From: Candidatus Poribacteria bacterium
Lineage (GTDB): Bacteria > Poribacteria > WGA-4E > PCPOR2b
Assembly: GCA_965116925.1 (NCBI GenBank)
Contig: OZ220744.1
Location: 2,729,136-2,793,135 of the forward strand
Direction of reading: 5' to 3'
DNA: 64,000 nt
The notes beneath the pieces were generated by a model. It was not told the origin of the DNA, did not search any database, and worked only from the letters and a program-made list of their open reading frames with translations. Every line of letters starts with the position of its first letter. Within the stretch, counting starts at the first letter, position 1. The position numbers and the translations under genes were made by a program. Positions 24,782 to 50,883 of this stretch are shown one piece after another.

Positions 24782-25201
24782 TTACCTGTTTCCTTTCTTC
24801 GCTTTTTGGGGAACCGCAAATCCTACCATTCCCCGCTTGCCTAACTGCCGCATAAACGTGAACAGCGATGTCTCCGCCTCTTTTCTCGTCATGCGATATT
24901 TGTCACAAAGTTGTTTGACGATATAACCGATGGAATTATGTCCATCGCATAGTTGCCACACAAAGCCTCCGACATCGTCCAAGACAACCACACGGTTGGG
25001 AGGCAGCATAAAGAGTTTCGCTACCAACTTTAACCACAGCGTCTCCTTCTGAGGAATAACCAATGCAACTTCCCCTTTGTCATCGACCTCCCATTCGATT
25101 AACTGGTTGCGTAGCGGCAATGATTTTAAGATGTCCCCTCGATCCAGTTGGGATTCTGGACGTTTCTTGAGTCTGAGTTTGTAAAGGATTGCATTAATCA
25201 T
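24782..25201 (-). CDS. PqqD-family (RiPP-recognition-element-like) protein
   Basis: 'VVLDDVGGFVWQLCDGHNSIGYIVKQLCDKYRMTRKEAETSLFTFMRQLGKRGMV' matches the PqqD/RRE winged-helix pattern. Confidence 0.6.
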   Translation of the reverse strand: MINAILYKLRLKKRPESQLDRGDILKSLPLRNQLIEWEVDDKGEVALVIPQKETLWLKLVAKLFMLPPNRVVVLDDVGGFVWQLCDGHNSIGYIVKQLCDKYRMTRKEAETSLFTFMRQLGKRGMVGFAVPQKAKKGNR

Positions 25202-25250: not shown

Positions 25251-25559
25251 CTATAGCGCAATTTCTGCCGTCGCGTACGCGAGAGCAAAGAGGAGGAATA
25301 GTATAGCGTAACCAATTTTTGAATTGCAATCAGGAAACTTCCTTTTGAGATCCGTTGCACAATACACGGCAACCGCTGCGGAACCTGTTAGGCTCACGCC
25401 GAGAAAAATCGGATCTGGAATGTCGAGTTCTCCGATGAAGTACCCCATCAAACCACAGAGAATACACCACAAGAACCAGACGGGACCAGAATCATACCAC
25501 TTCATCTCTCTTTCCCCCTTTGCCGTAATTGTGGTGCGTGGGTTCATGTTACGTTTCAC
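25251..25559 (-). CDS. Small two-TM membrane protein (unknown)
   Basis: Hydrophobic segments 'VWFLWCILCGLMGYFIG' and 'IGYAILFLLFALAYA'. Confidence 0.45.
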   Translation of the reverse strand: MKRNMNPRTTITAKGEREMKWYDSGPVWFLWCILCGLMGYFIGELDIPDPIFLGVSLTGSAAVAVYCATDLKRKFPDCNSKIGYAILFLLFALAYATAEIAL

Positions 25560-25576: not shown

Positions 25577-26506
25577 TTAATGACGCCGGATGCTCGCCGC
25601 AATCTCTTCGGCTGTTCTCGCTGCATCCTGTTTGGCGATCGCTTGGACGACGTAGATCCGATTGGAGTGATGACAGTACCAGAGGTTCACGGCGAAAGTT
25701 TTGCGACGCATAATTTTGTCGATCACCAGCGCGGGACCAAAAGGCACGCGGTCTATGAGACGAGTTTCCTCTCCGATTAACGTTAGCCGTTCTTCTGCAT
25801 CGCCGTTGCTGGATTCAATTGAGAAGCCATATCCACGGATGGCTTTGGCGTATCTCCCTCGAAACCACTCCTCAAGATCTTGTTCCTTGAGCGTAACATC
25901 TGCGACTCCATACCGTTCGATGCTAACTTTTCGACTTCCATCTACGAACGAAAAGAGCAGGTAGCCCGACAACAGTTTATGCTTGTCGAGGCGATACCGC
26001 CGCGGAACTTCTGCATTGAGTTGGTAGGCACTCCAGAGCGTCGCCTGTCCTACCGGGTGATCTTGAACCGACCTAAATATTCGGCTAGTTGTCTCCTTAA
26101 TATTTTCCTTGAGATGTCCCATAACCTGCACGATTGTAATTCGCTTGCAGATATGGCAGTGGAAGATAACGCCGCTCGCCCGAAAATCGCCCTTCCAGTT
26201 GAAGAAAACAACCTCTCTGTCCTCGAAAAACGCCTCATCCTTGATTAGATTGACGTTACGCTGGATGTGCAGGTTTGTATCTTTGCGTTTATAATTTTTG
26301 CGGACGAGCTTGAAATAGTCGTCGAGGACCTTTTGGAGGTCTGGTTTCTTCTGCTTTGATTCAGACCATTTTAACTCAAGGCGCGGCATATCCGCGTCCT
26401 CTAGGCGCAGGTATCCACTTTTATCGTCACCAGATAATCCACTCAATTCCCAATCTGCGGGTAGTTCAAGGGTAATGCCACCCCACCCTAAAGTTGTCCA
26501 TTCCAT
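25577..26506 (-). CDS. Hypothetical 309-aa protein (no recognisable family), first gene of the PqqD/ABC operon
   Basis: Long ORF with codon usage like its neighbours. Tight spacing (17 bp) to the downstream gene. Confidence 0.5.
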   Translation of the reverse strand: MEWTTLGWGGITLELPADWELSGLSGDDKSGYLRLEDADMPRLELKWSESKQKKPDLQKVLDDYFKLVRKNYKRKDTNLHIQRNVNLIKDEAFFEDREVVFFNWKGDFRASGVIFHCHICKRITIVQVMGHLKENIKETTSRIFRSVQDHPVGQATLWSAYQLNAEVPRRYRLDKHKLLSGYLLFSFVDGSRKVSIERYGVADVTLKEQDLEEWFRGRYAKAIRGYGFSIESSNGDAEERLTLIGEETRLIDRVPFGPALVIDKIMRRKTFAVNLWYCHHSNRIYVVQAIAKQDAARTAEEIAASIRRH

Positions 26507-27581: not shown

Positions 27582-29579
27582 TTAGAAAGGCTTGACAATC
27601 ACCGCTTTAGAGACTAGCGCAATTGCAACCGTTCCCATTCCAATCAGTCCGACACCACAGACAAAGCCTGCTGCTAAAACGGGATTAAACATGAACCATC
27701 GTTTCAGTCCGAATATCTTAATCATGTAAAATCGACCGATAATTGCTCCCATTACCTTTGGAAGCATCATGCCTGGATCTGCTCCGATGCCGCCGACGAT
27801 CCCGTAGAACCACATACTCGGCATCTTTGCCACCCAGAGTATGCCGTAGATTGCCAGCGAGGAGGCGAAGCCTGCCGCAACATAGTTGCCACGAATGGCT
27901 TGCAACATCTGGCTGTTTCCGTCACGAAGCGAGGTTTTCCAGAGGCATTCGTTGGTCGCATAGAGGGGCCACCACGTCTGTGCGAATGGGTATTGCGCCG
28001 ACGGAATTGGCGCAACTTTCCAGACAAAATGCCAGACCACAATGCCGGAGACGATCAGGATCGGCATAAGCAGCAATCGTGCAGCGATACTACTGGTGAA
28101 GGTGGTGCCTGTCAATTCGAGGACACGCCAACTTTGGGTGCCACGTCCGTAGTCTTCGTCCGGCAGCGGGACGAACCAGATATCGATCTCCTCATAACGA
28201 CTCAGGATAAATGTAGTTTCGTGGAGATAAGGGATCTCGAAAAGGTCACGGCCGAGGATCCCGTACGTTCGCGCAGTGATGTATGAATTGATCGGGGTGT
28301 ACAAAAAGGCGAATCCGATAAGGAAAACCAGTGGGAAGTTCGGCGCCATATAGGTGTGGACAATATAGATAAAAGTGGTCATCCCAAAGAGCCATAGGAT
28401 TGCCATCAACCAGAGCGGAAAATCGCCGCGTCCCGGTGGTGGTTCTCTTAACGATCTGCCTGCCCCTGTCTGTTCCTGTCGGGCTTGCTTAAACTTTATC
28501 ACCATCGGAATCGAGGCTGCCATGCCAACGAGGGCGAAGCTGAACGATTTTCCCATCCCAAAGCTAATCCAAAAATCGAGACCGTTATATAAGCCTACAC
28601 CGCGGACATCCAAGCCGGGACGCCACTGATGTAAAATCTCTGCGGGATAGAGAAGTCGTGGGTTCAGAATAAACTGGGTAAAGAATGCCCCTGCCAGCTC
28701 CGTCATGATAATGGGAAATGGCAGCACAAAACCGGTGAGTACCGCTCCGAAGTCGGTCGATAATGCGAATACACCTGTTGGCGCGATTTCTTCAATTACA
28801 TTCGTGAAATCGATAAATGGAATTTTCAGGAGCTGTATCGGCGTTGTCATCATCACGCCTGTAAGTGAGGGGATACCGATATAGATAAATCCCCAGATCA
28901 AACCCGCCATAGATCCGACCGAAAAAACCCGCCACCGCCACGTTTCGACACGTCCGGTGGTTTCTGCTAAGGCGGTCGCGCCCTGTGCTTCGATGGGTGC
29001 CATTGGGTAGGGTAGCCGCTCCATATCCGCTGTCAGTCGAAACAGAAAGTAGCCTGCACTGATATAGCGGATCTCCCCCAGCAGCTTGAATATCAGGAAG
29101 AATGCGATGGGCCAGAACCAGTCCATGTGCAAGAGCGAACGCTCTGCAATCGCTATCGCATCTTTCGGCGGCACAATCCAGAAAGGGATTTTATCCGCAA
29201 TTTCATACGACGCAGCTTGTGGCGTATTGATAAAGTATGCGTACCAGATAAAGCCGCGATACTGACCCCCGGACCCGACCGCTGCACCGGTGAGTCCAAG
29301 TAACATATAAAGCTCTTGTCGCCGAGCGGTTGTGAAAGATCGACGGGCTAGCTCTGTGAACAGGATAACTGCGACCCACGGTGCTGCCCCTGCCCCGGAT
29401 TGACCAGAGACGAGGGTCAGGTAGATTGACCCCGGCATCATCAGCAAGCCGACAAAAAGTGCGCCCAAAAAGACCTTCAGCGTTAGACCCGATTCAAAAG
29501 TGCGGATACCACCATCGATGTCGTAGCGCTGTGCCCAAACTTGCCACTCTTCTGCTTGTGTAATTCGTTCTCTTGCCAT
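27582..29579 (-). CDS. Polytopic membrane protein (about 14-16 TM; possible transporter, family not recognised), paralog 2
   Basis: 665 aa, about 70% identical to the product of 30966-32963. Many hydrophobic helices. Conserved N-terminus 'MARER.TQAEEWQ.WAQRYD'. Confidence 0.6.
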   Translation of the reverse strand: MARERITQAEEWQVWAQRYDIDGGIRTFESGLTLKVFLGALFVGLLMMPGSIYLTLVSGQSGAGAAPWVAVILFTELARRSFTTARRQELYMLLGLTGAAVGSGGQYRGFIWYAYFINTPQAASYEIADKIPFWIVPPKDAIAIAERSLLHMDWFWPIAFFLIFKLLGEIRYISAGYFLFRLTADMERLPYPMAPIEAQGATALAETTGRVETWRWRVFSVGSMAGLIWGFIYIGIPSLTGVMMTTPIQLLKIPFIDFTNVIEEIAPTGVFALSTDFGAVLTGFVLPFPIIMTELAGAFFTQFILNPRLLYPAEILHQWRPGLDVRGVGLYNGLDFWISFGMGKSFSFALVGMAASIPMVIKFKQARQEQTGAGRSLREPPPGRGDFPLWLMAILWLFGMTTFIYIVHTYMAPNFPLVFLIGFAFLYTPINSYITARTYGILGRDLFEIPYLHETTFILSRYEEIDIWFVPLPDEDYGRGTQSWRVLELTGTTFTSSIAARLLLMPILIVSGIVVWHFVWKVAPIPSAQYPFAQTWWPLYATNECLWKTSLRDGNSQMLQAIRGNYVAAGFASSLAIYGILWVAKMPSMWFYGIVGGIGADPGMMLPKVMGAIIGRFYMIKIFGLKRWFMFNPVLAAGFVCGVGLIGMGTVAIALVSKAVIVKPF

Positions 29580-29843: not shown

Positions 29844-30938
29844 TTAGTCCAATGCTTGTAGGAACGCTTCAAAACTGGAGGCTTGGATTGCTCTGAGATG
29901 CAGTTGTGTCAGACGCTCGGTATCTAGTATCAATTCAAGTTTCTGCTGAACGTGTTGTAGGTTATTCTGCGGGAATCTCGCATTGAGTACTGAGAGAATA
30001 TTTTTGATAGTAGTTTCGCGCGCGCCTTGTTCAATGCCTTGTTCAATACCTTGTGCCTTGCCTTGTTCAATGCCTTGTGCCTTGCCACGTTCAAGCAGCA
30101 CTTCTGCCATTGACTGTGCCATTGAGGATACCTCCATTTCTTCTGTATGCCGATCTACCAAGGTTAGTAACTCGTTGTGTTCTTCAGCAGGACGGCGATG
30201 CAGAATCAATAACAACAGATACATAATTGCTCTATACCGCTGCTCCGATTCTGTCACATCCAGCGAGTTCAACTGTGATAGTGCTTGAACCAACGCTTCG
30301 CTTAGTGCCTCTCGACTTGCACCCTCTTTTTGAAGAACCGTTAGCAGCCAGCCCAACGGGTGCCCTGTCTTTGTTAAATCCGTCTCATCTGTTTCCTTCA
30401 CGCTTAAAAACAAAGTGTCAAATTTGGGAACAAACCGAGAGAGTAGGTCCGGAATGTCCATTATGTCAGTGAGTGCCAAGGAAACGCTCCAACGCCGTTC
30501 CCCCGTATATAACACCATCGGGAGGATCGGACGCAAACGCCGCTCACTTCCCGGAACATCATCTGACTCCCATTCCCTACGTTGTGCGTCCCACAGTTGC
30601 GTCATGTAAAACAGCACTCGAAATCCCATCAGCGGATCTACTGTAGATTGGTGTTCAAGCAAGATATAGATGAGCAGTTCATCGGTTTCCGAACCCCGCC
30701 GAAATGGCACGCTGAACACGAGGTCCGATTCCTGTTCTCGGAGTGTGTCAGAAATGAAGCTTCTGTTGAGTGGTGTAAGTTGGTCAAAATCTAAAAACGC
30801 TACCAGCTCGTTTGCAACGATTTCTACCAAGCCACGGACATATTGCTTGTCTTGGAACAACCACCGCGCGCTTCGGTCAGGAAAGTGTTCAATCGGAAAA
30901 TCGACAGAAGCGCGTTCTTCTGTTTCCTCAGTTTGCAT
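29844..30938 (-). CDS. Rpn-family (YhgA-like, PD-(D/E)XK) recombination-promoting nuclease / putative transposase with a DUF4351-like C-terminal tail
   Basis: 'IYILLEHQSTVDPLMGFRVLFYMTQLW' matches the EHQS..D..M.FR hallmark of Rpn/Transposase_31. C-terminal 'ERGKAQGIEQGKAQGIEQGIEQGARE' repeat tail. Confidence 0.65.
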   Translation of the reverse strand: MQTEETEERASVDFPIEHFPDRSARWLFQDKQYVRGLVEIVANELVAFLDFDQLTPLNRSFISDTLREQESDLVFSVPFRRGSETDELLIYILLEHQSTVDPLMGFRVLFYMTQLWDAQRREWESDDVPGSERRLRPILPMVLYTGERRWSVSLALTDIMDIPDLLSRFVPKFDTLFLSVKETDETDLTKTGHPLGWLLTVLQKEGASREALSEALVQALSQLNSLDVTESEQRYRAIMYLLLLILHRRPAEEHNELLTLVDRHTEEMEVSSMAQSMAEVLLERGKAQGIEQGKAQGIEQGIEQGARETTIKNILSVLNARFPQNNLQHVQQKLELILDTERLTQLHLRAIQASSFEAFLQALD

Positions 30939-30965: not shown

Positions 30966-32963
30966 CTAAAACGGCTTGACAATAACCGCTTTGGAGACTA
31001 GTGCGATTGCAACCGTTCCCATGCCAACAAGCCCGACACCACAGATGAAGCCTGCCGCCAAGACGGGATTATACATGAACCATCGTTTCAGACCAAACTG
31101 TTTGATCATGTAAAACCGACCGATGAGGGCACCCACCACTTTTGGAACCATCATCCCCGGGTCTTGACCGATCCCCCCAACAATGCCGTAGAACCACATA
31201 CTTGGCGCCTTTGCCATCCAGAGCAGCCCGTAAATTGCCACTGAGGAGGTAAAGCCGGCTGACACGTAATCGCCGCGAATGGCTTGTAACATCTGGCTAT
31301 TTCCATCTCGAAGTGAGGTTTTCCAGAGACATTCATCGGTTGCGTAGAGAGGCCACCATGTCTGTGCAAAGGGATACTGTGAGGACGGGATAGGTGCGAT
31401 CTGCCAGATGAAATGCCAGACCACGATTGTCGCAACAATCAAGAGCGGCACCATCAAGGCACGCGCTAGGACGTCGCTGGTGAAAGTTGTGCCGGTCAAT
31501 TCAAGCACACGCCAATGCTGCGTACCCGCTCCGTAATCTTCATCTGGCAGGTGGACAAACCAGATATCAATCTCCTCGTAGCGGCTTAAAATAAACGTTG
31601 CCTGATGGATGTAGGGCAGCACGAAGAGCGGTCGCCCTAACACTCCAAATGTTCGTGCGTTGATATAGGAGTGCAAAGGGGTATACAGAAAGGCAAAGCC
31701 GAGGAGGAAAGAAACGGGAAAGTTCGGGACCATCCGATGCACAATCCATACATACACCACCATGCTGAGACCCCATAAGCCGCCCATGAACCAAATTGGG
31801 AAATCACCACGTCCCGGCGGCGTTTGCAGCGAGCCTCGCGCCCCCGCCTCTTGTTGTTTTTTCCTTCTGAGGCTCAACATGATTGGGATGGACGCTGCCA
31901 AACCGACGGCAGCAAAGCTGAAGGATTTGCCCATGTTGAAACTCAACCAGAAATCGAGGTCATTAAACAGCTTAACGCCACGCATATCCAAGCCCGGACG
32001 CCACTGATGTAGGATCTCCAATGGGTAGAGGATTCGCGGGTTCAGGATAAACTGGGTGAACATCGCTGCAACGAATTCGCTAATAATAAGTGGAAACGGT
32101 AGCACAAACCCCTGTAGCATCATGCCAAAATCTGTCCATAGGGCAAACATCCCCGATGGTGCAAAGCTTTCGATGCTTGGGGTGAAGTCAATAAATGGGA
32201 TTTTCAGAATCTGTATCGGTGTTGACATCATCACGCCTGTGAGCGCAGGAATACCGATATAGAAAAACCCCCAGAACAGTCCCGCCATGGAACCGATTGA
32301 AAAGACACGCCAACGCCATGTTTCGCCCTGACCCGTGGTTTCGGCTAATGCGGTCGCGCCTTGCGCTTGAATCGGTGCCAACGGGTAGGGGAGTCGCTCT
32401 AAATCTGCTGTCAGACGGAACAGAAAATAGCTCGCGCTAATATAGCGAACCTCTGCTAGCAACTTCATGACCAGAAAGATCGCAAGGGGCCAGAACCAAT
32501 CCATATGCAACAGCGAACGCTCTGCAATTGCCATCGCGTCCTTTGCGGGTGCAACCCAATAAGGGACTTTGTCCGCGATTTCATACGACTGTGCCTGCGG
32601 CGTGTTGATAAAGTAGGCGTACCAGACAAACGGATAGGCACGATATTGGATTCCAGAACCGACCGCCATGCCGGTTAGTCCCAGCAAAATGTAAAGTTCT
32701 TGTCTCCTTGCAGTTGTGAAAGACCGGCGCGCCAATTCTGTAAATAGAATGACCGCCACCCAAGGCGCAGCACCTGCGCCCGACTGACCTGCAACTAAGG
32801 TCAGATAGATTGACCCCGGCATCATCAATAGACCGATGAAGAGTGCACCTAGAAAGACTTTCAAGGTTAAGCCGGACTCAAAGGTTCTTAAACCGCCTTC
32901 AACATCATAACGTTGTGCCCAAGCTTGCCACTCTTCTGCTTGCGACACCCTTTCTCTTGCCAA
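30966..32963 (-). CDS. Polytopic membrane protein, paralog 1
   Basis: See 27582-29579. Collinear over the full length. Confidence 0.6.
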   Translation of the reverse strand: MARERVSQAEEWQAWAQRYDVEGGLRTFESGLTLKVFLGALFIGLLMMPGSIYLTLVAGQSGAGAAPWVAVILFTELARRSFTTARRQELYILLGLTGMAVGSGIQYRAYPFVWYAYFINTPQAQSYEIADKVPYWVAPAKDAMAIAERSLLHMDWFWPLAIFLVMKLLAEVRYISASYFLFRLTADLERLPYPLAPIQAQGATALAETTGQGETWRWRVFSIGSMAGLFWGFFYIGIPALTGVMMSTPIQILKIPFIDFTPSIESFAPSGMFALWTDFGMMLQGFVLPFPLIISEFVAAMFTQFILNPRILYPLEILHQWRPGLDMRGVKLFNDLDFWLSFNMGKSFSFAAVGLAASIPIMLSLRRKKQQEAGARGSLQTPPGRGDFPIWFMGGLWGLSMVVYVWIVHRMVPNFPVSFLLGFAFLYTPLHSYINARTFGVLGRPLFVLPYIHQATFILSRYEEIDIWFVHLPDEDYGAGTQHWRVLELTGTTFTSDVLARALMVPLLIVATIVVWHFIWQIAPIPSSQYPFAQTWWPLYATDECLWKTSLRDGNSQMLQAIRGDYVSAGFTSSVAIYGLLWMAKAPSMWFYGIVGGIGQDPGMMVPKVVGALIGRFYMIKQFGLKRWFMYNPVLAAGFICGVGLVGMGTVAIALVSKAVIVKPF

Positions 32964-33205: not shown

Positions 33206-33374
33206 GCTATTTTTTTTCTCGAAAAAGCTCTTCCCAAACGTGGGCGATAATAATTCCAACAATGAGAATTAGGGCAGCGAGTAGTTGTGCCTGCCATCTG
33301 CCTTGCATAGCAAAAATCGAAAATACCCAAAAAATTGCACCGATAAAAATTAAGACATACGCTAGTTTTTCCAT
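33206..33374 (-). CDS. 55-aa two-TM membrane peptide, translationally coupled to the giant upstream gene
   Basis: ATG at 33374 with AAGGAG 8 nt upstream. The RBS overlaps the TAA stop (33393-33395) of the 7.4 kb gene. Product MEKLAYVLIFIGAIFWVFSIFAMQGRWQAQLLAALILIVGIIIAHVWEELFREKK. Confidence 0.55.
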
Positions 33375-33392
33375 TGATTCTGTTTTCTCCTT

Positions 33393-36300
33393 TTAATCCG
33401 CTGGTGCGGGTTGAGCAGCCAGACCGCCAACGCCCGGAGCGTCTTCCGTCTCGCTCTCTTGCCGTCCACGCTCATGGAACTCACCGCGGATATCAGCACT
33501 GAACGTCCGCCAAATTAGTAGCTGTTTTCGGACAAGGTTCAAGAAACGACGGTTGACGCGCTTCCATGAAGCAATCTCCCCGCTCTCACGGTGGACATCG
33601 AGGTGAATCTTATACAACTCTTCCTCTTCTCCGCCGACCGGTGAGGTGACAAGCCGAATGGATTGGCTGACTCCGAGATCGTAGGGGGCGAGCCACACCA
33701 TCATGCTGATGTTGTAGGCTTCTTCCTCTTCCTCTTTCCCTTCCACTACCACAGGCGTTCGACCGAAGGCGACCTGATCCGTGTAGAAATCGCTTGCGGA
33801 TTCGTCGGCGTGTGCTTCAAAGTAATCGCGCATAAAGATATTTAAGCCGAGCGATTCTTCTGCCAACACGGTGAAGGGGAGATCGAAGTGCCACTCGTCG
33901 CCTTCAGGCTCCGGCAGCTGCCATTTCCGTTCGATGTCAGGCACCGCCATGCGACTGGCTTTAATTGCAGGATACAGTGTACTTCCAATCACGACAATCA
34001 TTACAATAATGGTTGCTACCACTGTTGACATTGACGAGTAGTTGAGGGTCAATCCAGCAAGCAAGCCAAAGTTGACAAGGACGGTTGCGACTGCCTGGCC
34101 GAGCAGGTAACCGAGCACAGCACCGACAATCGCATACACACACGCTTCCGCGAGGAACAGGAAGGCGATATGCACGGGAGCGAGTCCGACAGAACTGTAG
34201 ATGCCGATTTCACGGACCCGTTCGTAGACCGCACCGAGCATCGTGTTCAGAACGATCAGCGACGCAATTAAAATTGGTATGAATAGGTTACCCATACCGG
34301 AGAAAGAGGTCATTCCGATGGAACTGTAGAGATAGGTGTCCCGATCTTTTCCAACAAAGAAGTCGAGTGCGATTCGGTTCATCAGCGGTGCCATGATCAG
34401 GTCCAGTTTATCTGCCGCACTGAAGATTGTTGGATCGCCGGGCTGTGCTTCCATGTTGACAGCGACGGAGCGTAACGTCCCGCCCTGATTCATGACTACA
34501 TCATACGGCAGGATAGCCACAGCATCGGGAGGTAGATGAATATATTTCTCCAACTCTCCTTCCATGGCTTGGTTCTGTCCTTGGGCGCCACCGCCTCGCG
34601 CTTCCTGCTGCTGCATCAGTTGGTAGTCAACAGGTGTCAGTTCTTCGCCATCATTATCCTGTAAGTCTTTGAAGCCGATACCGAGAACACCCGTAACGGT
34701 GAAGTCTGCGCCGTATACGGATACAGTCGCTTTGCCCATATCGGCTTCGGTGATGCCGAGCAGATCCGCCATACCTTTGGGGAGGACACAAGCATAGGGC
34801 CATTGTGTGGGCCACTCTGCTTCATCGTCGGGGTGATACCATCGACCATACTGGAGGTAACGGTCAATTCCTGTTACACCGGGTTCATCTTGACTCATCC
34901 CGACCAACATGGTAGCAGAGTAGGTCTTTGGCTGACCGGTGGTAGTATTGACAGGCGGTACAGGATCTTGCAGGTTGGGGGTGCGCTCTAGCTGCACAAA
35001 CGACTGATCGCCGGTGCCCGCGGACTGATACCATGCGCGTGGCGCGACGATGTTATGCACTCGGAGGACGGATTCTTCGCCCAGCTCAATCAACGATCCC
35101 TCCTGACGTAATTGGGCTATGATTGCTTCAACCTCTACGTCAGCCTGCTCTGCCGATTTACCTTGCTGCCCCAGTCGTTTCTTCAGCAGTAACCGTAGAT
35201 CTTTTTCAGGGATTTGTGTTTTCCGCAGATCATTTGTGAGTGAGTTGACAACAGGTTCTTCGAGCGGATTCCAATACTGATCTCGGATAAGCATCCCGGT
35301 GTAGCGCGGCGTTACGGAAGGTAGGTTGGTGCTGTTGGGATGCATAAAGGTACGCACCGATGTAAAGGAGATGACCGTAAAGGTGAGAATAACCAGTGTG
35401 CTACAGGTGAGGATGGTGCGGCCCTTCCGCTTACGCATATTGGAAATACCTAGACTGAAAGCGGCAGCGGAGGCAGACAAGCGTCCCACGTCTGCCTTGT
35501 ACACTTTTGATCCCTCCTGCTTAATTTTTTCCACCTGTTCTTCAAATTTCCGGACGATGATGCTGATCACAATTGCCGTCAACGCAAGGACGACGAACGC
35601 AATCAGGATGATAACCGGCGTCGTGGTAATCTGGAATGCGGGGTGCACCTGCGCCAAGAAGAAAAAGACAACGAGGAAGATCGCAGCTGTCCCCATAATC
35701 TGTTTTTGGACGGTTGGGAAAGCGAATATCAACCGTTCCATGAAGTAGGCGAACGGGATCAGGAGGGCGAGATAGAACATCACACCATTGACTACGTCAT
35801 TGCCGGTTTTCTTCACATCGGGGTAGGCGCGGGATTCGTATCCCCACGCGGCGCGGGCAAGTTTGAGTGCCTGCTGATAGTCTTTTTGGGTGAGGGCAGC
35901 CTCCGCCTGATTTAGATGTTCGTTGGCGAATTGGTGGAGCTGATCAAGCCGATCGCTGCTGATGCCGAACCGTTTATACAGACTCGCCCGGTTCTCATCG
36001 AGCCACCACATATCGCGGACGACAACGTATGGGGTTACGCGAATGCTACCGTTCTCGCGGACAACAAACCCTTCTCCGGTATAGAGTGTCGGGTTCTTCG
36101 TTCCGCTTTTACTCGCCTTGATCAATAGTAACCGTTTGCCGATTTGTCCATACGCCATGCCGACCTTGATACGACTGTTAGGCTCCGAATAAACGAGCGC
36201 GATAGGCTCAGTTGCCGAGATACCTTCCTGCTGCCACGGCTTCGATACGCCATACTTTTCTGGTGGGCTATCGCTTGCGGCATCAAAAACTTCCAGTTCA

Positions 36301-39300
36301 CGAAGCGTTCGTAGGTATCGCTGATCCACAAGATCGTAGATAGTGGTAGACACACAGGGGAAAACCACGATACGGCATCCACGACGGTGGGTGTTAATCG
36401 GTATCAGGTTCGGCAAGAGTTTCGCGCCGAAGTTACCGAGATCCGGTGCGTAGACAATATCACCGGAATCCGGGTGGAGGATATAAGCTTCCACCTCTTG
36501 CGTTCCTTTGAGGCGGATGGTGGCACGCCCCTCCATCGCAAGTCCTGCAACCTCAAAGTTTCCTTTATTGTCGCCCATTGCAATGAGATCGCCTCGCACC
36601 CCCATCATGGTTTTGTGCTGATTCCGCAAAGCGAGAATAGGATACTCCACCGGTTTGTTTGGTAGCGCGCTCTCACGGGCATCATACTCGACGACATCAC
36701 CAAACAGGTTGCAGTAGAAGTTCCCCACCCGTGCTGCGGTGGGCATCTTCGGATCGCGCATCGCTTGGATAAGAATAGCGGCAAGGGTTTTCGCCTGTTT
36801 ATGCAAGGCACCATCGTGGCTCAAATCCATTCGGTCAATTGTGTCGAGCGGGGTATCGGTCAACACGCGTGCATCGTCGATGGTGGCAAAAGCAATTCCG
36901 GTAAAGCCGGTCAGGGTTGCCACTTCGCTATCAAAGGCTATCTTACCAGGTATGTAGGTCTTCCAGATCTTACCGCCACTAGCAGAGATTGCGTTGACAA
37001 AGTTGGTCTCACCACCAAACCCGGCGATATCAATGAGTGCCTTAATATCATCGACTTCCTCTTGTGTAAATTCGGACGGGTCCTCGTGGCGCAGGGCAAG
37101 CATCGCATCCATTCGATTGAGCAGGCGCACCTTATTCTTCCGGTTCTTCCGCGCCTCCCGGATATCGTTTCGGATGAATCGTTCGACTTCCTTACGGATA
37201 TAGTCCATATCCTTGAGCATATCCTCGGAAGGTTCGCCCTGATTTTTCATCTGCTCAAACTGCATCTTCATCAATCGAGACACTCCGGATAGCCCGACCA
37301 ACGTTGCGTAATGCTCAGTAACTAAGCTTTCAAGGCTCTTGCCCTCGATGGCTTTTTTCGGATCGATGCCAGCTGCAACTGTCCATTGAGTATTCATCAC
37401 CGCTTGGCGGATCTGATCGTCGGTGAAGGTCCATAGTTTCTGGATACGTTCACCGAAATCGGCACCCTCTGCGTATTCGGCAAGTTTATTTCCGATGGAA
37501 GCGAACTCGCGGCGGAGGACAAATTCGGGCTGCTGGTCATAGAACCACCCTTTGTTGAATACGCCAAACTGGTCGTTCTGGCTGGAGAGGTCAATGGCGA
37601 TAAAGAGAGAGGTGTAGTAACGATTAAAGATGTCTTGCAGTGCAATCGCTTGTTCGATGGAACGTATCTTCCGTGTGTATTCTGACTCGCTGATACGTGC
37701 AATTTTCTCGACCCGTTTTTGTAGATTGCGAAATCGAGCGTTCCGCATCGTGAGCAGGTTATCACGGAGGAGAATCTTGGTCTCCTCGTCCGGATCGCGG
37801 TCAAGACGGTCAAGGATGTTCAGCAGGTTCTGGAGTTCGACAATATCGTTTTTGGCTCGCCGCTTCACCATCTCTAGTAGATGCTGTTCTTCAAGCTGAC
37901 CGAAGATCTGCTCTCGGACAGCCATCGCTCGGTCTGCTGCATCTTCAGGGAGATAGTGGCGGAGGACGAGTGCCTCTTCGGCGAGGTAGGGACGGTTCAG
38001 CGACGCATGGCGTTCAAGGAGGGATTCAATTCGATAGCGTTCAAGGCGAGCGTTCCGCATCGCGGTTTCGAGGATACTCTGTTTATCTCTGGTCAGGTCA
38101 TCAACCAAAATTTGGTCTAATTCTCGTGAGGTTGCTGTTCCCGTTGTCGGGTCCATCATCTCCAACTTCTGGTGGAGTTGAGTCTGAACAATCTCAAACT
38201 GCTTGAGGGTTGCCTCATTGAGGAAGAGTTCTAGCTCATCCGCAAAGCCTGCCGGGAGGTGATCCGGTTTAGAACTTAACTGGGTGATAGCGTTTTTGAT
38301 ACTATCCTCTGCATCGCTGCTTGCGGGAATATTGGCGAGCGTTCGTTCAAGGAGTTGCCGTTCTTCTTCGATGTAGGCTTCCAGAGATTTTTCAGCGCGG
38401 TTGACAACCCTACGAGCTGACTTGATTCGTTCCAAACCCTTAAAGTCAAGATGGCGGTCTAACAACTTCTCTTGGGCATACTGGAGGGTGAATTTCCGTG
38501 GATCTTCAAATTCCCAGTCCTGCAAATTGTCCGAGAGTCGCTGAACATCTACCTCCAGATACGACGGTAGGTCACTCGGTACTGGTAGATAATAACGTCC
38601 CCCCTCCCGTTCCTTCGGTACGAGATAGCTGCTGTCTGGCGTTTGTACATATTTCCCTTCAATCCGTTCTGCCCTTAAATCCGCTTCCAATTTATCTATT
38701 GCCCAAACGTCCAACCGAGCCATCGGTAGGGCAATCTGTTCAATCAATTCACGTTGGGTGTCACGGCATTCAGCTAATGCTTGTGTGCGCAGTTTTAGGG
38801 TACGGTTAAGCATTGAACGCAGGAATTGAGTGGTCTGCAGCGCGTCTTTCTTGAACTTCGCGAGGTTGACCTCTAGTCGTGATTTTTCCTCTTCGGTGAA
38901 TCCTTGCTTCTCCCGTTTCTTGGTTGTTTCGAGTTTCTTCTTCTCTTTCTCTTTTGCGTCACGCTGGGCGTTACGCAACGAGTCAATGTTGCCTTTGGTT
39001 GTCTGTAGATCGGAGAGGGTTGTTGCTAGGGAGGCGACATCTGCTTTGAGTTCGTGGACATCGTGGAAGAAGTTAGGGGGTAAATCTACCAGCACATTTC
39101 GGTCGATCGATAGCAGTAGCTTACGTCCCAGTTCCTCAAACTCAAAGAGGTCGGTACTTAAACCGCGACGCAGCCCGCGCATTGTCGGTGTGCCGGGAGA
39201 ATCCGCTTCTCGTCCGACGATATCTTGACCAATCCCCTCCATAAATGCGCGCATACCCCCCAGTCCTTGGAAGTGGGCATCTGTTGCGACAAACAGAAGG

Positions 39301-40814
39301 GAACGCCCCGGTCGAAATTCCTCTTGGCTGAAGATACGAGCAAGCTCCAACAGAGTGGCAATGCCGCCGGTGGGATCGGCACCGGGTGCCATTGCGGGAA
39401 CGACAGACATTGAGTCGTAATAGCCGGTGATAACAACCAATTCGTCCTTTAGGGTTGGGTCGCCACCTTCAAGGAAACCACGAATGTTCTGCCCAATACG
39501 CTGTTCCCAAGTAATGGTACTAGTGAGACGTGCGTAAATTTTCTGAGGAGACGATTCCGATTGTGCTTCCCCTTCGCCAAGCATAGCCAAGAGTTCGTCG
39601 GCGTCCTCTTTAGCAATCCAGAAGCGGGGGATGTTGGCAGGGACCGTCAGGAATTTGTTCTCAGCCTCACCGCGGATAGTTGTCTCCGGCTCGATGAAGA
39701 GGACAGCTTTCGCGCCAAGCATGGCGGCGTTAATCCATTTGGTACTAGAGTTGAAGTCAACCAGTACAACGCTGCCTTGGGGGATAAAGATGCTGGATTC
39801 ATAGGCGGCAACAAACTCGCCTTCTTCGTCAATTTGCCCATTGTTGTTGTTATCAATACCATCAGTTGCATCGCCGGGGATTTCGTCTACGAAGGCGTCA
39901 CCATCGTTGTCGATGCCGTCGGTATCCCATTGCAAGATCTCAGTTAGTGGGGGAATCTCACCGTATTCGTCGATCTGTCCGTCTTCATTGTTGTCAATAC
40001 CATCTTGCGTCTTTTGGAGATGGCCGTTAAGCACATCGTCAGTGATGCTGCCGACACCGATACGGAAACGGTGGGCGAGGTCTTCCAAAGTATCGCCAGG
40101 TTCAACTTTGTGCCAGAAACCGCCGATATCTTTGCCGTTGAACGAGGAGAGTTCCCCACTTCCCCCATAAAAGAGGGGCGCGGTCAGTCCACCGGTGGGA
40201 ATAAAGAGCGAGTTGCCTTCGACCAGCACTAACTCGCCCGGTTCGTCGATTTCACCATCATCATCGTTATCGCTGCCATCGGTTGCTTGGTCACGGAGGT
40301 ATTGGTTATGCGGGTCAGCCAAGATAGCTTGTGGGTCAACTTGATAGGATTTAGCAATTCCGTCAAAGGTTTCGCCTTGAACGACTACATGCGAGACACC
40401 GTTGGGGAGGAAGGAGGTGCGAACAAGGTTGGGCCAGATTGACCAGATTCGGTAAGTCTTCAGAAGCGTTTGATCTTCGGAAAGAATTTCTACCTTTCCA
40501 TCACCGTGATCTATTGGAACAGAAACGGGAAACTCACGGCTCTCAACGTTTTGTAAGCCGATCTCGACAAATTGGTCAAAGATGTACTTGCTGCCTGAAG
40601 CGGCTTCATCGTAACCGGTGACGCGGGTGGGCAGATTGGAGAGTCGAGCGATGTCTTTTCGCATTCGGCCGATATCGACTTTGTCACTGATTTTGACTGC
40701 AACCTCCGAAAGCCCGACAGACAGCTGTTCGTCAACAGCGAAACCGCCGTGTGGAGATAGTAGCGCGAGAATGCAGAGCCATAGACTGATGTAATAATAT
40801 CTCTTGATGATCAT
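33393..40814 (-). CDS. Giant (about 2470 aa) secreted/membrane multidomain protein: signal peptide, M28-family Zn peptidase with Ca-binding Asp-rich repeats and LysM-like motifs, about 1000-aa coiled-coil, then 3 TM and a FtsX/MacB-type permease module with a large extracytoplasmic domain and a C-terminal cytoplasmic tail
   Basis: M28: 'ITGYYDSMSVVPAMAPGADPTGGIATLLELARIF...LLFVATDAHFQGLGG'. Repeats 'DGIDNNEDGQIDEYGE', 'DTDGIDNDGDAFVDEIPGDATDGIDNNNNGQIDEEGE'. FtsX TM1 'FSLGISNMRKRKGRTILTCSTLVILTFTVIS'. FtsX core 'GNLFIPILIASLIVLNTMLGAVYERVREIGIYSSVGLAPVHIAFLFLAEACVYAIVGAVLGYLLG'. Start set at Met40814 (GGAGG RBS, signal peptide IIKRYYYISLWLCILALLSPHGGFA) rather than the track's 40898. Confidence 0.8.
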   Translation of the reverse strand: MIIKRYYYISLWLCILALLSPHGGFAVDEQLSVGLSEVAVKISDKVDIGRMRKDIARLSNLPTRVTGYDEAASGSKYIFDQFVEIGLQNVESREFPVSVPIDHGDGKVEILSEDQTLLKTYRIWSIWPNLVRTSFLPNGVSHVVVQGETFDGIAKSYQVDPQAILADPHNQYLRDQATDGSDNDDDGEIDEPGELVLVEGNSLFIPTGGLTAPLFYGGSGELSSFNGKDIGGFWHKVEPGDTLEDLAHRFRIGVGSITDDVLNGHLQKTQDGIDNNEDGQIDEYGEIPPLTEILQWDTDGIDNDGDAFVDEIPGDATDGIDNNNNGQIDEEGEFVAAYESSIFIPQGSVVLVDFNSSTKWINAAMLGAKAVLFIEPETTIRGEAENKFLTVPANIPRFWIAKEDADELLAMLGEGEAQSESSPQKIYARLTSTITWEQRIGQNIRGFLEGGDPTLKDELVVITGYYDSMSVVPAMAPGADPTGGIATLLELARIFSQEEFRPGRSLLFVATDAHFQGLGGMRAFMEGIGQDIVGREADSPGTPTMRGLRRGLSTDLFEFEELGRKLLLSIDRNVLVDLPPNFFHDVHELKADVASLATTLSDLQTTKGNIDSLRNAQRDAKEKEKKKLETTKKREKQGFTEEEKSRLEVNLAKFKKDALQTTQFLRSMLNRTLKLRTQALAECRDTQRELIEQIALPMARLDVWAIDKLEADLRAERIEGKYVQTPDSSYLVPKEREGGRYYLPVPSDLPSYLEVDVQRLSDNLQDWEFEDPRKFTLQYAQEKLLDRHLDFKGLERIKSARRVVNRAEKSLEAYIEEERQLLERTLANIPASSDAEDSIKNAITQLSSKPDHLPAGFADELELFLNEATLKQFEIVQTQLHQKLEMMDPTTGTATSRELDQILVDDLTRDKQSILETAMRNARLERYRIESLLERHASLNRPYLAEEALVLRHYLPEDAADRAMAVREQIFGQLEEQHLLEMVKRRAKNDIVELQNLLNILDRLDRDPDEETKILLRDNLLTMRNARFRNLQKRVEKIARISESEYTRKIRSIEQAIALQDIFNRYYTSLFIAIDLSSQNDQFGVFNKGWFYDQQPEFVLRREFASIGNKLAEYAEGADFGERIQKLWTFTDDQIRQAVMNTQWTVAAGIDPKKAIEGKSLESLVTEHYATLVGLSGVSRLMKMQFEQMKNQGEPSEDMLKDMDYIRKEVERFIRNDIREARKNRKNKVRLLNRMDAMLALRHEDPSEFTQEEVDDIKALIDIAGFGGETNFVNAISASGGKIWKTYIPGKIAFDSEVATLTGFTGIAFATIDDARVLTDTPLDTIDRMDLSHDGALHKQAKTLAAILIQAMRDPKMPTAARVGNFYCNLFGDVVEYDARESALPNKPVEYPILALRNQHKTMMGVRGDLIAMGDNKGNFEVAGLAMEGRATIRLKGTQEVEAYILHPDSGDIVYAPDLGNFGAKLLPNLIPINTHRRGCRIVVFPCVSTTIYDLVDQRYLRTLRELEVFDAASDSPPEKYGVSKPWQQEGISATEPIALVYSEPNSRIKVGMAYGQIGKRLLLIKASKSGTKNPTLYTGEGFVVRENGSIRVTPYVVVRDMWWLDENRASLYKRFGISSDRLDQLHQFANEHLNQAEAALTQKDYQQALKLARAAWGYESRAYPDVKKTGNDVVNGVMFYLALLIPFAYFMERLIFAFPTVQKQIMGTAAIFLVVFFFLAQVHPAFQITTTPVIILIAFVVLALTAIVISIIVRKFEEQVEKIKQEGSKVYKADVGRLSASAAAFSLGISNMRKRKGRTILTCSTLVILTFTVISFTSVRTFMHPNSTNLPSVTPRYTGMLIRDQYWNPLEEPVVNSLTNDLRKTQIPEKDLRLLLKKRLGQQGKSAEQADVEVEAIIAQLRQEGSLIELGEESVLRVHNIVAPRAWYQSAGTGDQSFVQLERTPNLQDPVPPVNTTTGQPKTYSATMLVGMSQDEPGVTGIDRYLQYGRWYHPDDEAEWPTQWPYACVLPKGMADLLGITEADMGKATVSVYGADFTVTGVLGIGFKDLQDNDGEELTPVDYQLMQQQEARGGGAQGQNQAMEGELEKYIHLPPDAVAILPYDVVMNQGGTLRSVAVNMEAQPGDPTIFSAADKLDLIMAPLMNRIALDFFVGKDRDTYLYSSIGMTSFSGMGNLFIPILIASLIVLNTMLGAVYERVREIGIYSSVGLAPVHIAFLFLAEACVYAIVGAVLGYLLGQAVATVLVNFGLLAGLTLNYSSMSTVVATIIVMIVVIGSTLYPAIKASRMAVPDIERKWQLPEPEGDEWHFDLPFTVLAEESLGLNIFMRDYFEAHADESASDFYTDQVAFGRTPVVVEGKEEEEEAYNISMMVWLAPYDLGVSQSIRLVTSPVGGEEEELYKIHLDVHRESGEIASWKRVNRRFLNLVRKQLLIWRTFSADIRGEFHERGRQESETEDAPGVGGLAAQPAPAD

Positions 40815-41043
40815 GATAATTCCTCCGATTTTTTTAATAGGCTGACCGGCGCATAGTATGCTATTGTGTTTAGATCTGTCAGATTCTATCATAGTCACAA
40901 AGTCTTGTCAAGATGCAAAACGGATCTAATTCACAAAAACATAAAACGTGATTGGTTCATTTATCATGTTTTAGATTTCATTCATGGAATGCCGATAAAA
41001 TCGGGGATGCAGGGCGTAACTTCTATCAATTTCGTTTTATACC

Positions 41044-41072
41044 TTGCATTGGGCGACGTAATATGTTAAAAT
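41044..41072 (+). promoter_or_regulatory. Sigma-70-like promoter (TTGCAT-17-TAAAAT) for the XRE/ImmA pair
   Basis: TTGCAT at 41044-41049, 17-nt spacer, TAAAAT at 41067-41072. AAGGAGG RBS at 41148-41154. Confidence 0.5.
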
Positions 41073-41157
41073 GTGAATCACAATCGTTAGAAGGTGCAAT
41101 AAACACGCTTTTCTGCGATCGTACACCGTTTTTTACCCTAACCCCATAAGGAGGTAT

Positions 41158-41502
41158 GTGATTATGTCTGTTTCAGTACGTATTAAGGAACGTCGTGATA
41201 AACTCGGAATGACACAAACACAACTCGCCAAATCGGCGAAGTTGACTCCCGCAGCGATTTCACAGTTTGAGTCCGGTGCCCGGAAACCGGCATTCGACAC
41301 ACTTTCGAGCCTTGCCGATGCGTTAAAAGTTACCACAGATTACCTGCTCGGCAAAAAGGCGCACGACTACGACGACCTTCTGGCGGATCCGAAGGTTAGT
41401 GTTATGTTTAGAGGTATCATGGACCTTTCTGAGGAAGATAAGGAGACGCTGATCGAGTTCTACCAATTTCTTAAAGATAAAAACGGCAAAAACACGCAGT
41501 AA
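41158..41502 (+). CDS. XRE-family helix-turn-helix transcriptional regulator
   Basis: HTH_3 'LGMTQTQLAKSAKLTPAAISQFESGARKPAFDTLSSLADALKVTTDYLLG'. ATG at 41164 is more likely the real start (RBS spacing). Confidence 0.85.
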   Translation: MIMSVSVRIKERRDKLGMTQTQLAKSAKLTPAAISQFESGARKPAFDTLSSLADALKVTTDYLLGKKAHDYDDLLADPKVSVMFRGIMDLSEEDKETLIEFYQFLKDKNGKNTQ

Positions 41503-41530
41503 CACAATTTGATGGATCTGCTGCTTTGAC

Positions 41531-42418
41531 ATGAACCAGAGATCGTCCCAAAAACATCAGATTGCAGAACAGGTGTCCTCCAAACCCGCTCTAGAACCTG
41601 CCGAGGGTGCGCGACAGTTGTTGCGTGAACTAAATGTTCAGGACATCCCGATTCAACCGCGAAATATTGCAGAACAGTTGCAAATCGTCGTCTGGGAACG
41701 GGAGATGGAAAGCCAGTACGATGGCTGCTTAATGCGGGTTGGCGATACGTGGGGCATTCTGCTCAACAATCTGATTCAATCAGAGTCCCGAAAGAACTTT
41801 ACAATCGCTCACGAACTGGGGCATTACTACTTGGATGGGGGACAAACTGAGAGGCAAAATTTCGCTACAGATGCAAAGAACAGAGCGGCGGAATTTGCCC
41901 CTCAGCACCGTTGTCAGCGCGAAGATTTGCGTGGATTTGATTCGCACCAATTGGAAGAGCAACGTGCCAATCAGTTCGCAGTTGAGCTGCTGATGCCCTC
42001 TCCCATTTTTCGAGCGGACGCTACCGATCTGCCTAAAATCGGGTTGACGGCGATTGATACCCTCACTGCCAAATATTCTACCTCTTTGACCAGCACGGCT
42101 ATTCGCTACACACGCTTGAGTCCGCATGTTTGTGCGATTGTGCTGTCTGAGCGGGGGCAGATTAAATACTTTGCTTATTCAGATGGCTTTCGTCAGAATA
42201 GTGATTGCTATCTCGCGAAAAATAAGCCCCTCCATCCCGACTCGGTCGCAGCCCTGCTTGACAAAGGTAAATCGAAAGAGGTGAAAGAACACCAGCGGAA
42301 AGTTCCGTTGTCCCATTGGTGTTCGACGCAATCGGATCAACCCCTCGTCGAGCAATCCCGCCGATTGCCCCGCATGAATCAGGTGCTCTCGTTTCTTTGG
42401 TTGCCGGACGGGGCGTGA
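41531..42418 (+). CDS. ImmA/IrrE-family (DUF955) zinc metallopeptidase
   Basis: 'FTIAHELGHYYLD' HEXXH motif plus a downstream Glu. Paired with the upstream XRE HTH, as in ImmR/ImmA and CapH/CapP modules. Confidence 0.8.
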   Translation: MNQRSSQKHQIAEQVSSKPALEPAEGARQLLRELNVQDIPIQPRNIAEQLQIVVWEREMESQYDGCLMRVGDTWGILLNNLIQSESRKNFTIAHELGHYYLDGGQTERQNFATDAKNRAAEFAPQHRCQREDLRGFDSHQLEEQRANQFAVELLMPSPIFRADATDLPKIGLTAIDTLTAKYSTSLTSTAIRYTRLSPHVCAIVLSERGQIKYFAYSDGFRQNSDCYLAKNKPLHPDSVAALLDKGKSKEVKEHQRKVPLSHWCSTQSDQPLVEQSRRLPRMNQVLSFLWLPDGA

Positions 42419-42463: not shown

Positions 42464-42577
42464 ATCGACTCAGTTAGTTCATTAGTTCATTGATGATAGA
42501 GCCCATCAGAAAACTTAACGGGGCACAAAAAAGGGGTGCATCCGAAGATACACCCCTAGTCTATGAAGCATTTGCTC

Positions 42578-47933: not shown

Positions 47934-50883
<2,950 letters not shown>

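Follow-up and report, generated by a model that had tools for sequence, protein, structure and literature searches.

Type VII ATP-binding cassette (ABC) transporters power work outside the membrane: MacB in efflux, the Lol systems in lipoprotein extraction and FtsEX in the control of cell-wall hydrolases. The described systems (MacB, LolCDE/LolDF, FtsEX and YtrEF) have an FtsX-type core of four transmembrane (TM) helices, a large periplasmic domain and a separate ATPase. A second relevant group consists of nicalin, the transferrin receptor and nicastrin, which are known non-catalytic M28/PA ectodomains of membrane complexes. CapH/CapP regulator pairs, finally, lie upstream of and opposite to the operons that they control, which are mostly defence operons (bioRxiv 10.1101/2022.04.27.489752). 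Here we describe a locus in a sponge-associated Candidatus Poribacteria genome, within a stretch of 64,000 nucleotides (nt) that we call the window (assembly GCA_965116925.1, contig OZ220744.1, positions 2,729,136 to 2,793,135). Its central gene encodes a giant protein of 2,473 amino acids (aa) in which an M28/PA-like ectodomain is fused to an FtsX/MacB-type permease. We lean towards reading the locus as a type VII (MacB/FtsX/LolC-like, mechanotransmitting) ABC system with a pseudo-peptidase ectodomain, and we give this reading somewhat better than even chances.

The giant protein shares with the known type VII systems the four-TM core, the large periplasmic domain and the separate ATPase. Unlike in those systems, about 1,770 aa precede the FtsX module (the M28/PA region, a strand-rich domain and three extra TM helices), a cytoplasmic alpha+beta domain of about 180 aa follows it, and an OPT-like partner is usual. 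We saw none of the partners of other type VII systems here, whether of the membrane fusion protein/TolC, LolA or EnvC type.

The giant protein and its family

The giant gene lies in an uninterrupted open reading frame (ORF) at 33393-40898(-), in which the ATG at 40814 has a GGAGG 7 nt upstream. An earlier reading of this DNA, made from the letters and the ORF translations (hereafter the sequence-only reading), had described the product as an M28 peptidase, a coiled coil and an FtsX permease in one chain, with a membrane micro-protein behind the gene and a divergent pair of XRE and ImmA regulators in front of it. All of the features it named are present where it had placed them, and hydropathy bore out its topology (N-terminal segment, three TM helices, TM1, TM2-4). 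The parts of the gene are as follows.

33393..40814 (-): giant gene for 2,473 aa and a stop codon; encodes an M28/PA-like ectodomain, then three TM helices, the FtsX/MacB permease and a cytoplasmic domain at the C-terminus
40734..40790 (-): presumed signal peptide or anchor; hydrophobic segment at aa 9-27, from a hydropathy scan with no dedicated predictor
36750..40682 (-): M28/PA-like ectodomain with degenerate metal site, aa ~45-1355 (Pfam, family profile)
39780..40412 (-): two insertions within the PA region (aa 135-203, aa 231-345), carrying a pair of LysM-like half motifs as well as Asp-rich repeats of the form DGxDNxxDGxIDE
37617..39233 (-): first helical insertion (aa 528-1066), placed in the M28 fold between the strands of 'EE' and 'D179'
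37041..37466 (-): helical insertion 2, aa 1117-1258 (insertion map, structure model)
35835..36737 (-): strand-rich domain, aa ~1360-1660, conserved in the family and kept in homologues of other phyla
35556..35795 (-): three TM helices joining the ectodomain to the permease, aa 1674-1753 (hydropathy)
33945..35486 (-): FtsX/MacB-type module, aa ~1777-2290; TM1, a periplasmic domain of ~360 aa and TM2-4 (Pfam, PDB matches)
33396..33944 (-): cytoplasmic domain of alpha+beta type at the C-terminus, aa 2291-2473; tentative helix-grip fold (START/SRPBCC/KA1-like)

Both similarities proposed for the giant protein were found by Pfam. FtsX matched at aa 2178-2289 (1.8e-12) and Peptidase_M28 at aa 443-525 (4.5e-8); the latter match is above the cut-off and is partial (profile positions 1-77 of 193). 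Weak matches to MacB_PCD and PA were also present. A sequence search of the PDB matched MacB, LolC, YtrF and the Aeromonas proteolytica aminopeptidase (AAP), and the family profile matched MacB at 4.5e-15 as well as LolF. In the permease, hydropathy places TM1 at aa 1800-1818 and TM2-4 at aa 2178-2280, with the extracytoplasmic domain between them, which is the layout of an FtsX four-TM core. No Pfam or PDB match was found for the strand-rich domain. We modelled aa 1370-2473 with AlphaFold2 (AF2), and the C-terminal domain was the sole usable part of a model with a mean predicted local distance difference test score (pLDDT) of 42. It has an antiparallel alpha+beta fold that is not Rossmann-like, at a pLDDT of 62-82 within a poor overall prediction.

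The ORF is genuine. We found more than 120 full-length homologues, a lower bound, of 2,420-2,570 aa and 68-97% identity, and every named one is from Candidatus Poribacteria. These rule out an assembly chimera or a frameshift, which had been raised as a concern. In one species-representative genome (OY764061.1) the protein is 99% identical across the C-terminal half.

The family extends well beyond Poribacteria. When we searched 1.84 billion cluster representatives with aa 1400-2473, 1,315 clusters (50% identity) matched at E<1e-30, and the best 150 of the 1,315 are mostly 1,450-1,900 aa long and 35-51% identical. We checked the domains of six family members. Three have Peptidase_M28, MacB_PCD and FtsX together, and the other three have FtsX plus one of Peptidase_M28 and MacB_PCD, or neither. 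One member, P0134, has a contiguous M28 match. When one genome per species was scanned, at least 595 family stretches were confirmed across at least eight phyla, among them Poribacteria, Armatimonadota (including Chthonomonadales), Omnitrophota, Nitrospirota, Gemmatimonadota, Latescibacterota, Ratteibacteria and Zipacnadia. From these comparisons we regard the giant protein as an enlarged member of a widespread, uncharacterised family of ~1,500-aa fusions between an M28/PA ectodomain and FtsX. The sequence-only reading had held the fusion to be of unusual design; the M28-FtsX fusion is instead a large multi-phylum family. A literature search on this fusion family found nothing relevant. The family would make up a large unstudied branch of the type VII systems. 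In this branch the part that works outside the membrane, a nicastrin/nicalin-like pseudo-peptidase, is built into the permease and usually goes with an OPT-like transporter; its members come from many diderm phyla that are poorly cultured. This is a new architecture for studies of mechanotransmission, and cultured relatives in Armatimonadota or Gemmatimonadota offer an experimentally tractable route to it.

Enlargement of the ectodomain has also occurred independently in other lineages, where three proteins of 2.8-3.0 thousand aa (P0149, P0156, P0177) carry arrays of Big_5 Ig-like domains N-terminal of M28. Some Poribacteria genomes have a second, paralogous giant gene (L004, L026, L028, L045, L049) with a C-terminal half that is ~74% identical. 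None of these five paralogue loci has capH, p309, PqqD or the ATPase nearby. In L004 the paralogue is followed by a DUF6785/DUF6784 membrane protein, and hhalign gave no support for a link between it and the OPT-like family (probability 3%).

To map what is specific to Poribacteria, we aligned the giant protein with ten relatives of ~1,500 aa. About 890 residues are absent from the relatives, comprising the PA-region inserts, the two helical insertions and a further segment in the periplasmic domain (aa 1866-1919). The largest change lies between the 'EE' strand and the strand equivalent to that of Asp179, which are a few dozen residues apart in the short relatives and ~540 apart in the giant protein. 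We modelled aa 170-1369 with AF2 from an alignment of 46 sequences, all of them at least 62% identical, and only the helical inserts were confident. They form long helices of 42-74 residues at a pLDDT of 85-95, while the M28/PA core stayed below 50. The inserts are charged and Leu-rich, with a significant heptad signal in two windows only. A Foldseek search of the PDB with this model returned no match with E below 0.1, and its matches were generic proteins with long helices.

We think the helical region is best described as an elongated insertion of ~680 aa within the M28 fold, part of which may form a coiled coil. A coiled coil of ~1000 aa had been proposed; the long helices stand, while the region is shorter, sits inside the M28 fold and has heptads in those two windows only. 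The Asp-rich repeats were confirmed, with three exact copies of DGxDNxxDGxIDE found by regular expression and a looser fourth seen by eye. The LysM match covers the first 25 of the 43 profile positions, with no stretch passing by itself.

The metal site of the M28/PA ectodomain

The closest sequence matches to the ectodomain are active, PA-containing M28 aminopeptidases. The family profile matched the Aneurinibacillus enzyme (2ek8) at 2.3e-27 and YwaD (6hc6) at 1.4e-23; the YwaD match spans the entire M28+PA unit, and the main 2ek8 match takes in the N-terminal part and the PA domain and ends just beyond the EE motif. The C-terminal half of the M28 region found no match in a sequence search of the PDB. 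For the N-terminal ligand motifs, the AAP alignment, the matches of P0134 to 3iib and 2anp, and the alignment of the family profile to 2ek8 all agree. The Asp179 and His256 positions were placed by motif matching in the family alignment, not by direct alignment to a solved M28 structure. In AAP numbering, the metal-site residues compare as follows.

AAP His97, ligand: Tyr in the family
AAP Asp117, bridging ligand: kept as Asp/Glu, beside a one-residue deletion
AAP Glu151, general base: nearly invariant His
AAP Glu152, ligand: Phe or variable
AAP Asp179, ligand: kept
AAP His256, ligand: Ser or variable

Three of the five ligands and the general base are therefore substituted family-wide, and the substitutions are common to the relatives in other phyla. 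Where YwaD and 2ek8 have His, Glu and His as ligands and a catalytic Glu, the family has other residues. The re-tooled motifs (YYDS, PGA-E/D, G/A-H, DLS and DTPxDT) are among the best-conserved positions of the ectodomain across phyla, which indicates that the pocket is under selection, yet it has no canonical di-zinc site. Because of these substitutions we consider a canonical di-zinc peptidase unlikely. The M28 similarity in the sequence-only reading was right, and its active extracytoplasmic protease was not borne out.

The family profile also matched the non-catalytic ectodomains, namely nicalin (4e-8), the transferrin receptor (3e-6) and nicastrin (2e-3). Like them, the giant protein has an M28/PA fold that has lost metal ligands and is anchored in a membrane complex. 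Unlike these eukaryotic single-pass proteins, the bacterial domain is covalently fused to an ABC permease, and the family keeps the Asp117-like residue, Asp179 and a conserved His at the general-base position. On the strength of these matches and substitutions we take the ectodomain to be a binding or gating module; a bacterial M28 domain would then have been turned from an enzyme into a probable receptor. That it keeps some non-canonical hydrolytic activity is doubtful, although we would allow it a modest chance.

We considered whether the giant protein could instead be an active extracytoplasmic Zn-aminopeptidase or cell-wall hydrolase, driven by an FtsEX-like motor through an EnvC/PcsB-like coiled coil. 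The M28 similarity, the partial LysM-like motifs, the long helices and the FtsX module with its ATPase all fit such a machine, as do the kept Asp117 (as Asp or Glu) and Asp179 and the invariant His at the general-base position. The E151H mutant of AAP (PDB 2anp), the top match in the AAP alignment, is reportedly functional. We nevertheless judge this explanation quite unlikely. Across the family Tyr takes the place of His97, Phe that of Glu152, and Ser or a variable residue that of His256; the ~1,500-aa relatives with the same operon have neither the helical region nor the LysM-like motifs. Pfam found no LytM, CHAP, amidase or NlpC/P60 domain in the giant protein. The likeness to FtsEX with EnvC, PcsB or RipC lies in the idea of an FtsX-type permease controlling an extracytoplasmic module with ATP, and in the long helices of the Poribacteria protein. 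There, however, a separate coiled-coil adaptor carries or activates a LytM, CHAP or amidase hydrolase, whereas the helices here were inserted into the M28 fold in one lineage, and the core family does without them. We therefore dropped the EnvC/PcsB analogy that had been drawn, along with the proposed cell-wall role, which depended wholly on the partial, lineage-specific LysM-like motifs.

Partner proteins and the membrane cassette

In Poribacteria the giant gene is followed, in order, by a 55-63-aa peptide, a membrane protein of ~663 aa, a protein of ~309 aa, a PqqD-like protein and an ABC ATPase. We surveyed this operon by tblastn of the window proteins against 84 loci. In the window the partners are as follows.

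33207..33374 (-): 55-aa micro-protein with two TM helices, 18 nt after the stop of the giant gene, with its own Shine-Dalgarno sequence AAGGAG
30966..32963 (-): OPT-like membrane protein, copy 1, 665 aa (homology)
29844..30938 (-): Transposase_31 (YhgA-like), between the OPT-like copies (Pfam 4.7e-30)
27582..29579 (-): OPT-like membrane protein, copy 2, 665 aa, 78% identical to copy 1 (BLASTP)
25577..26506 (-): p309, a cytoplasmic protein of 309 aa with a conserved CxxC...C...CH (alignment across phyla)
24782..25201 (-): PqqD-like protein of the peptide-binding RRE type, 139 aa (Pfam PqqD 1e-12)
23956..24780 (-): ABC ATPase of the LolD/MacB/FtsE type, with its ATG at 24780, 1 nt after the PqqD stop (Pfam ABC_tran)

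The window operon is disturbed: it has two copies of the OPT-like gene and insertions of Transposase_31, a lipoprotein-like gene and a membrane ORF of 102 aa. By gene spacing, the closest relatives (L005-L008, L037) seemingly also have two OPT-like copies. The lipoprotein-like gene (26744-27475(-), 243 aa, weak LpoB/MXAN_6521 similarity) occurs only in the nearest relatives (L007), and so does the 102-aa ORF with its three hydrophobic segments (25251-25559(-); L005, L007).

The ATPase at 23956-24780, which the sequence-only reading had nominated as the partner, is real and is the last gene of this same conserved operon. Across phyla a cognate ATPase of the MacB/LolD/FtsE type is conserved, encoded either within the operon or just ahead of the fusion gene. 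The window ATPase is 64-76% identical to the copies beside the fusion gene in other phyla, whereas the permease is ~40% identical. Among the NCBIfam models its top matches are LolD, YbbA, DevA, DarD, MacB and FtsE, with LolD at 232.6 bits.

The OPT-like gene is the most regular partner outside Poribacteria. It lies downstream of the fusion gene in 26 of the 35 loci of other phyla (several of the remainder are truncated contigs), and immediately after it in the loci whose ORFs were listed. Seven of these 26 loci have p309, PqqD and the ATPase as well. This full set recurs in Armatimonadota, a partial one is found in Latescibacterota and Nitrospirota, and a further set of loci has the ATPase just upstream of the fusion gene. 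Two Armatimonadota operons carry an extra small FtsX-only gene of 227-255 aa between the PqqD-like gene and the ATPase (L063:16441-17124, L052:16173-16940), which suggests that the permeases there may be heterodimeric.

Homologues of the 665-aa protein are named 'peptide transporter' or 'OPT/YSL', and three of five homologues pass the Pfam OPT cut-off of 25.8 bits (P0346 at 32.7, P0294 at 27.0 and P0290 at 25.9). Of the aligned family members, 19 of 20 have no significant Pfam match, and a PDB search with the protein and its profile found no relative. Judging from the names and profile matches of its homologues, we class it as a probable, very divergent member of the OPT superfamily.

The PqqD-like protein has a PqqD domain by Pfam, and every match to an NCBIfam PqqD-family model is below the equivalog cut-off. 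We found neither a precursor peptide nor a modifying enzyme (radical SAM, lasso B2/C and similar) in the conserved operon, and on this ground we rejected a cluster for a ribosomally synthesized and post-translationally modified peptide of the lasso or PQQ kind. For p309 there was no Pfam or PDB match, its profile included, and all of its homologues are 'hypothetical'.

The 55-aa peptide had a tblastn match in 38 of 43 OPT-bearing Poribacteria loci and in no other phylum. It had been described as translationally coupled to the giant gene; the adjoining membrane ORF is there, without any overlap, closely spaced and with its own ribosome-binding site. We rejected 8xMP as its family (18 bits by Pfam, where 30 are required). 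Another Poribacteria genome does have a genuine member of the 8xMP family, ~10 kb upstream of its giant gene (L002:1-424).

With these partners, the type VII system that we favor would work as follows. Binding and hydrolysis of ATP in the cytoplasm would move the FtsX periplasmic domain, and this motion would pass in cis to the tethered pseudo-peptidase ectodomain, which would bind or gate a ligand, as nicalin, nicastrin and the transferrin receptor do, rather than cleave it. The cargo would most likely be peptides, or envelope material bearing them, which would pass to the OPT-like permease or come from it. A peptide-like ligand is suggested because the M28-derived pocket, the OPT-like permease and the PqqD/RRE domain all come from peptide-handling families.

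A Lol-like system that extracts lipoproteins or lipids, with the START/KA1-like C-terminal domain binding lipid, seems very improbable to us. The LolD score of the ATPase is below the model's cut-off of 307.75, the C-terminal fold assignment comes from the low-scoring part of a poor model (pLDDT 62-82), and the OPT-like and PqqD-like partners suggest peptides instead.

The membrane half of the protein also has a counterpart among CRISPR-ancillary candidates. The PADLOC model 'CARF_m8--CARF_LolE_TM' aligns with P0134 and P0125 at profile positions 35-690 of 810 (174-198 bits). In P0134 the 198-bit match (aa 756-1462) takes in the three TM helices, FtsX and the C-terminal domain. The best stretch of the giant protein (aa 2152-2329) covers positions 416-592 of 810 at 163 bits, and plain small FtsX-only proteins reach 32-37 bits against the same model. 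Since the profile spans the TM helices, FtsX and the C-terminal domain, we consider this membrane cassette, as far as profile matches tell, to be common to the candidate CRISPR-ancillary family. The CARF domain itself is not part of the likeness. The matches end at about position 592-690 of 810, the last ~120 positions have no counterpart, and the giant protein has no CARF-like (Rossmann) domain, its C-terminal domain being predicted as helix-grip-like. The model in turn has no M28 ectodomain, with ~35 positions preceding the TM helices.

The CapH/CapP pair and its setting

Across a divergent intergenic region of 343 nt, the giant gene faces two regulatory genes, and the region contains a promoter-like site.

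41158..41502 (+): capH-like XRE gene, probable start ATG 41164 (Pfam HTH_3; PADLOC capH)
41531..42418 (+): capP-like metallopeptidase of the ImmA/IrrE (M78) type, HELGH at aa 94-98 (Pfam Peptidase_M78; PADLOC capP)
40883..40911 (-): promoter-like site of sigma-70 type, TTGACA-17-TAGAAT (11 of 12, TG-extended), the best match in 19 kb, facing the giant gene
40870-40879 and 40920-40929: inverted 10-mers TTAGATCYGT that bracket the promoter; candidate CapH operator

The pair is of the CapH/CapP type, as had been proposed. Both PADLOC matches are full-length (capH 6.5e-22, positions 3-102 of 103; capP 1.8e-57, positions 6-241 of 242), the first protein has an XRE helix-turn-helix, and the HELGH of the second is invariant among the aligned orthologues. 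E. coli CapH is cut between Phe82 and Arg83 (bioRxiv 10.1101/2022.04.27.489752). In the window CapH and in L003 there is a Phe84-Arg85 near that position; two more distant orthologues have Leu-Arg, so that Arg85 is invariant in the four. These features are shared with the CapH/CapP pairs associated with cyclic-oligonucleotide-based anti-phage signalling systems (CBASS), which are related to ImmR/ImmA and DdrO/IrrE. Unlike in those, the operon here is a widely conserved ABC/OPT operon that is no known defence system, and many Poribacteria keep capH without an adjacent capP.

We examined synteny in 36 Poribacteria orthologue loci whose upstream sequence was at least 1.5 kb long, five paralogue loci and 35 loci of other phyla. 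A capH gene lies on the opposite strand in 26 of the 36 Poribacteria loci, in 14 of them together with capP, and in none of the five paralogue or the 35 other-phylum loci. The promoter-like site is conserved in the closest relatives. The 10-mer has only two copies in the window, and one exact arm is found at the same offset in L003, L005, L007 and L008. On the far side of the pair, a strong terminator-like hairpin (42532-42557(-), 11 pairs and a T-run) between the capP-like gene and a convergent 443-aa gene (42578-43909) insulates the capH/capP unit.

From this arrangement, control of the giant operon by CapH is a reasonable inference. In Poribacteria, CapH/CapP acting at the strong promoter would release the operon, and its expression in this lineage is probably de-repressed by DNA damage or single-stranded DNA. 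The distribution of capH suggests that the regulator pair is a lineage-specific addition and not part of the system's core. Control of the CapH/CapP, DNA-damage type on an operon without a recognised defence role bears on how broadly the switch is used.

It is possible that CapH/CapP is merely a neighbour that regulates only itself, for example the remnant of a mobile or defence element. In 10 of the 27 capH-bearing loci the gene is 1.1-4.7 kb from the operon, and in the one such locus whose genes we saw (L002) the insert includes a methyltransferase/Mrr-type gene. In addition, capP is missing in 12 of the 26 capH-bearing loci with enough upstream sequence, and capH is absent in 10 of the 36 Poribacteria loci and in all other phyla. 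However, the identity of capH tracks that of the giant gene (81/65/65% versus 83/73/69%), and the junction between capH and the operon stays intact although species differ in their outer flanks. The giant gene is also faced by the strongest promoter-like site in 19 kb, and this site is bracketed by an inverted 10-mer pair that is unique in the window. We therefore think a mere neighbour rather unlikely.

The same regulators raise the question of a stress- or phage-induced membrane effector, acting in defence or abortive infection, that CapH/CapP de-represses and that perturbs the envelope. In its favor, the arrangement is the same as in the published pairs of defence operons (bioRxiv 10.1101/2022.04.27.489752), and the membrane module of P0134 matches the CARF_LolE_TM profile at 40-683 of 810. 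Several observations speak against it. The operon is vertically conserved across Poribacteria and many phyla, with the high ATPase identity given above; it lies in the core chromosome near recA, icd and katG; outside part of Poribacteria there is no capH; no other PADLOC model matches the partner proteins; and there is no CARF domain. We hold a defence effector to be unlikely. There is also a small chance, in our estimation, that the operon is an unrecognised envelope-stress or anti-phage module whose cassette serves as a reusable effector, switched by CapH/CapP in Poribacteria and fused to CARF in type III CRISPR loci.

Some points weigh against the type VII reading with a pseudo-peptidase ectodomain, or against parts of it. 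The two kept acidic ligands (Asp117 as Glu or Asp, and Asp179), together with the near-invariant His, would be compatible with a non-canonical mono-metal hydrolase, which is possible from the residues involved. The AF2 models are poor beyond the helical inserts and the C-terminal domain, and they leave the ectodomain unplaced relative to the FtsX periplasmic domain. The OPT-like copies in the window have no Pfam match. Regulation by CapH is read from gene arrangement only, and neither the deep-branching Poribacteria nor any other phylum has capH at the operon; stress gating is consequently no property of the system as such. We consider the locus worth following up for its family-wide architecture, the recurrent OPT-like partner and the unusual placing of a CapH/CapP switch on a core-chromosome operon.

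The locus is in the core chromosome, with no obvious mobile island, and for this reason we rejected an immunity module of a prophage or of an integrative and conjugative element. Within 25 kb of it are recA (17041-18093(-)), a KatG-type catalase-peroxidase (47934-50414(-)) and a Fur-family regulator (52008-52424(-)). A few kb upstream of one Armatimonadota homologue are SIR2_2-domain and DUF4020 genes (L052:3810-7443), which are reminiscent of defence genes. The window also encodes a 193-aa ankyrin-repeat protein (21886-22467(-)); eukaryote-like proteins of the ankyrin type have often been noted in sponge symbionts.

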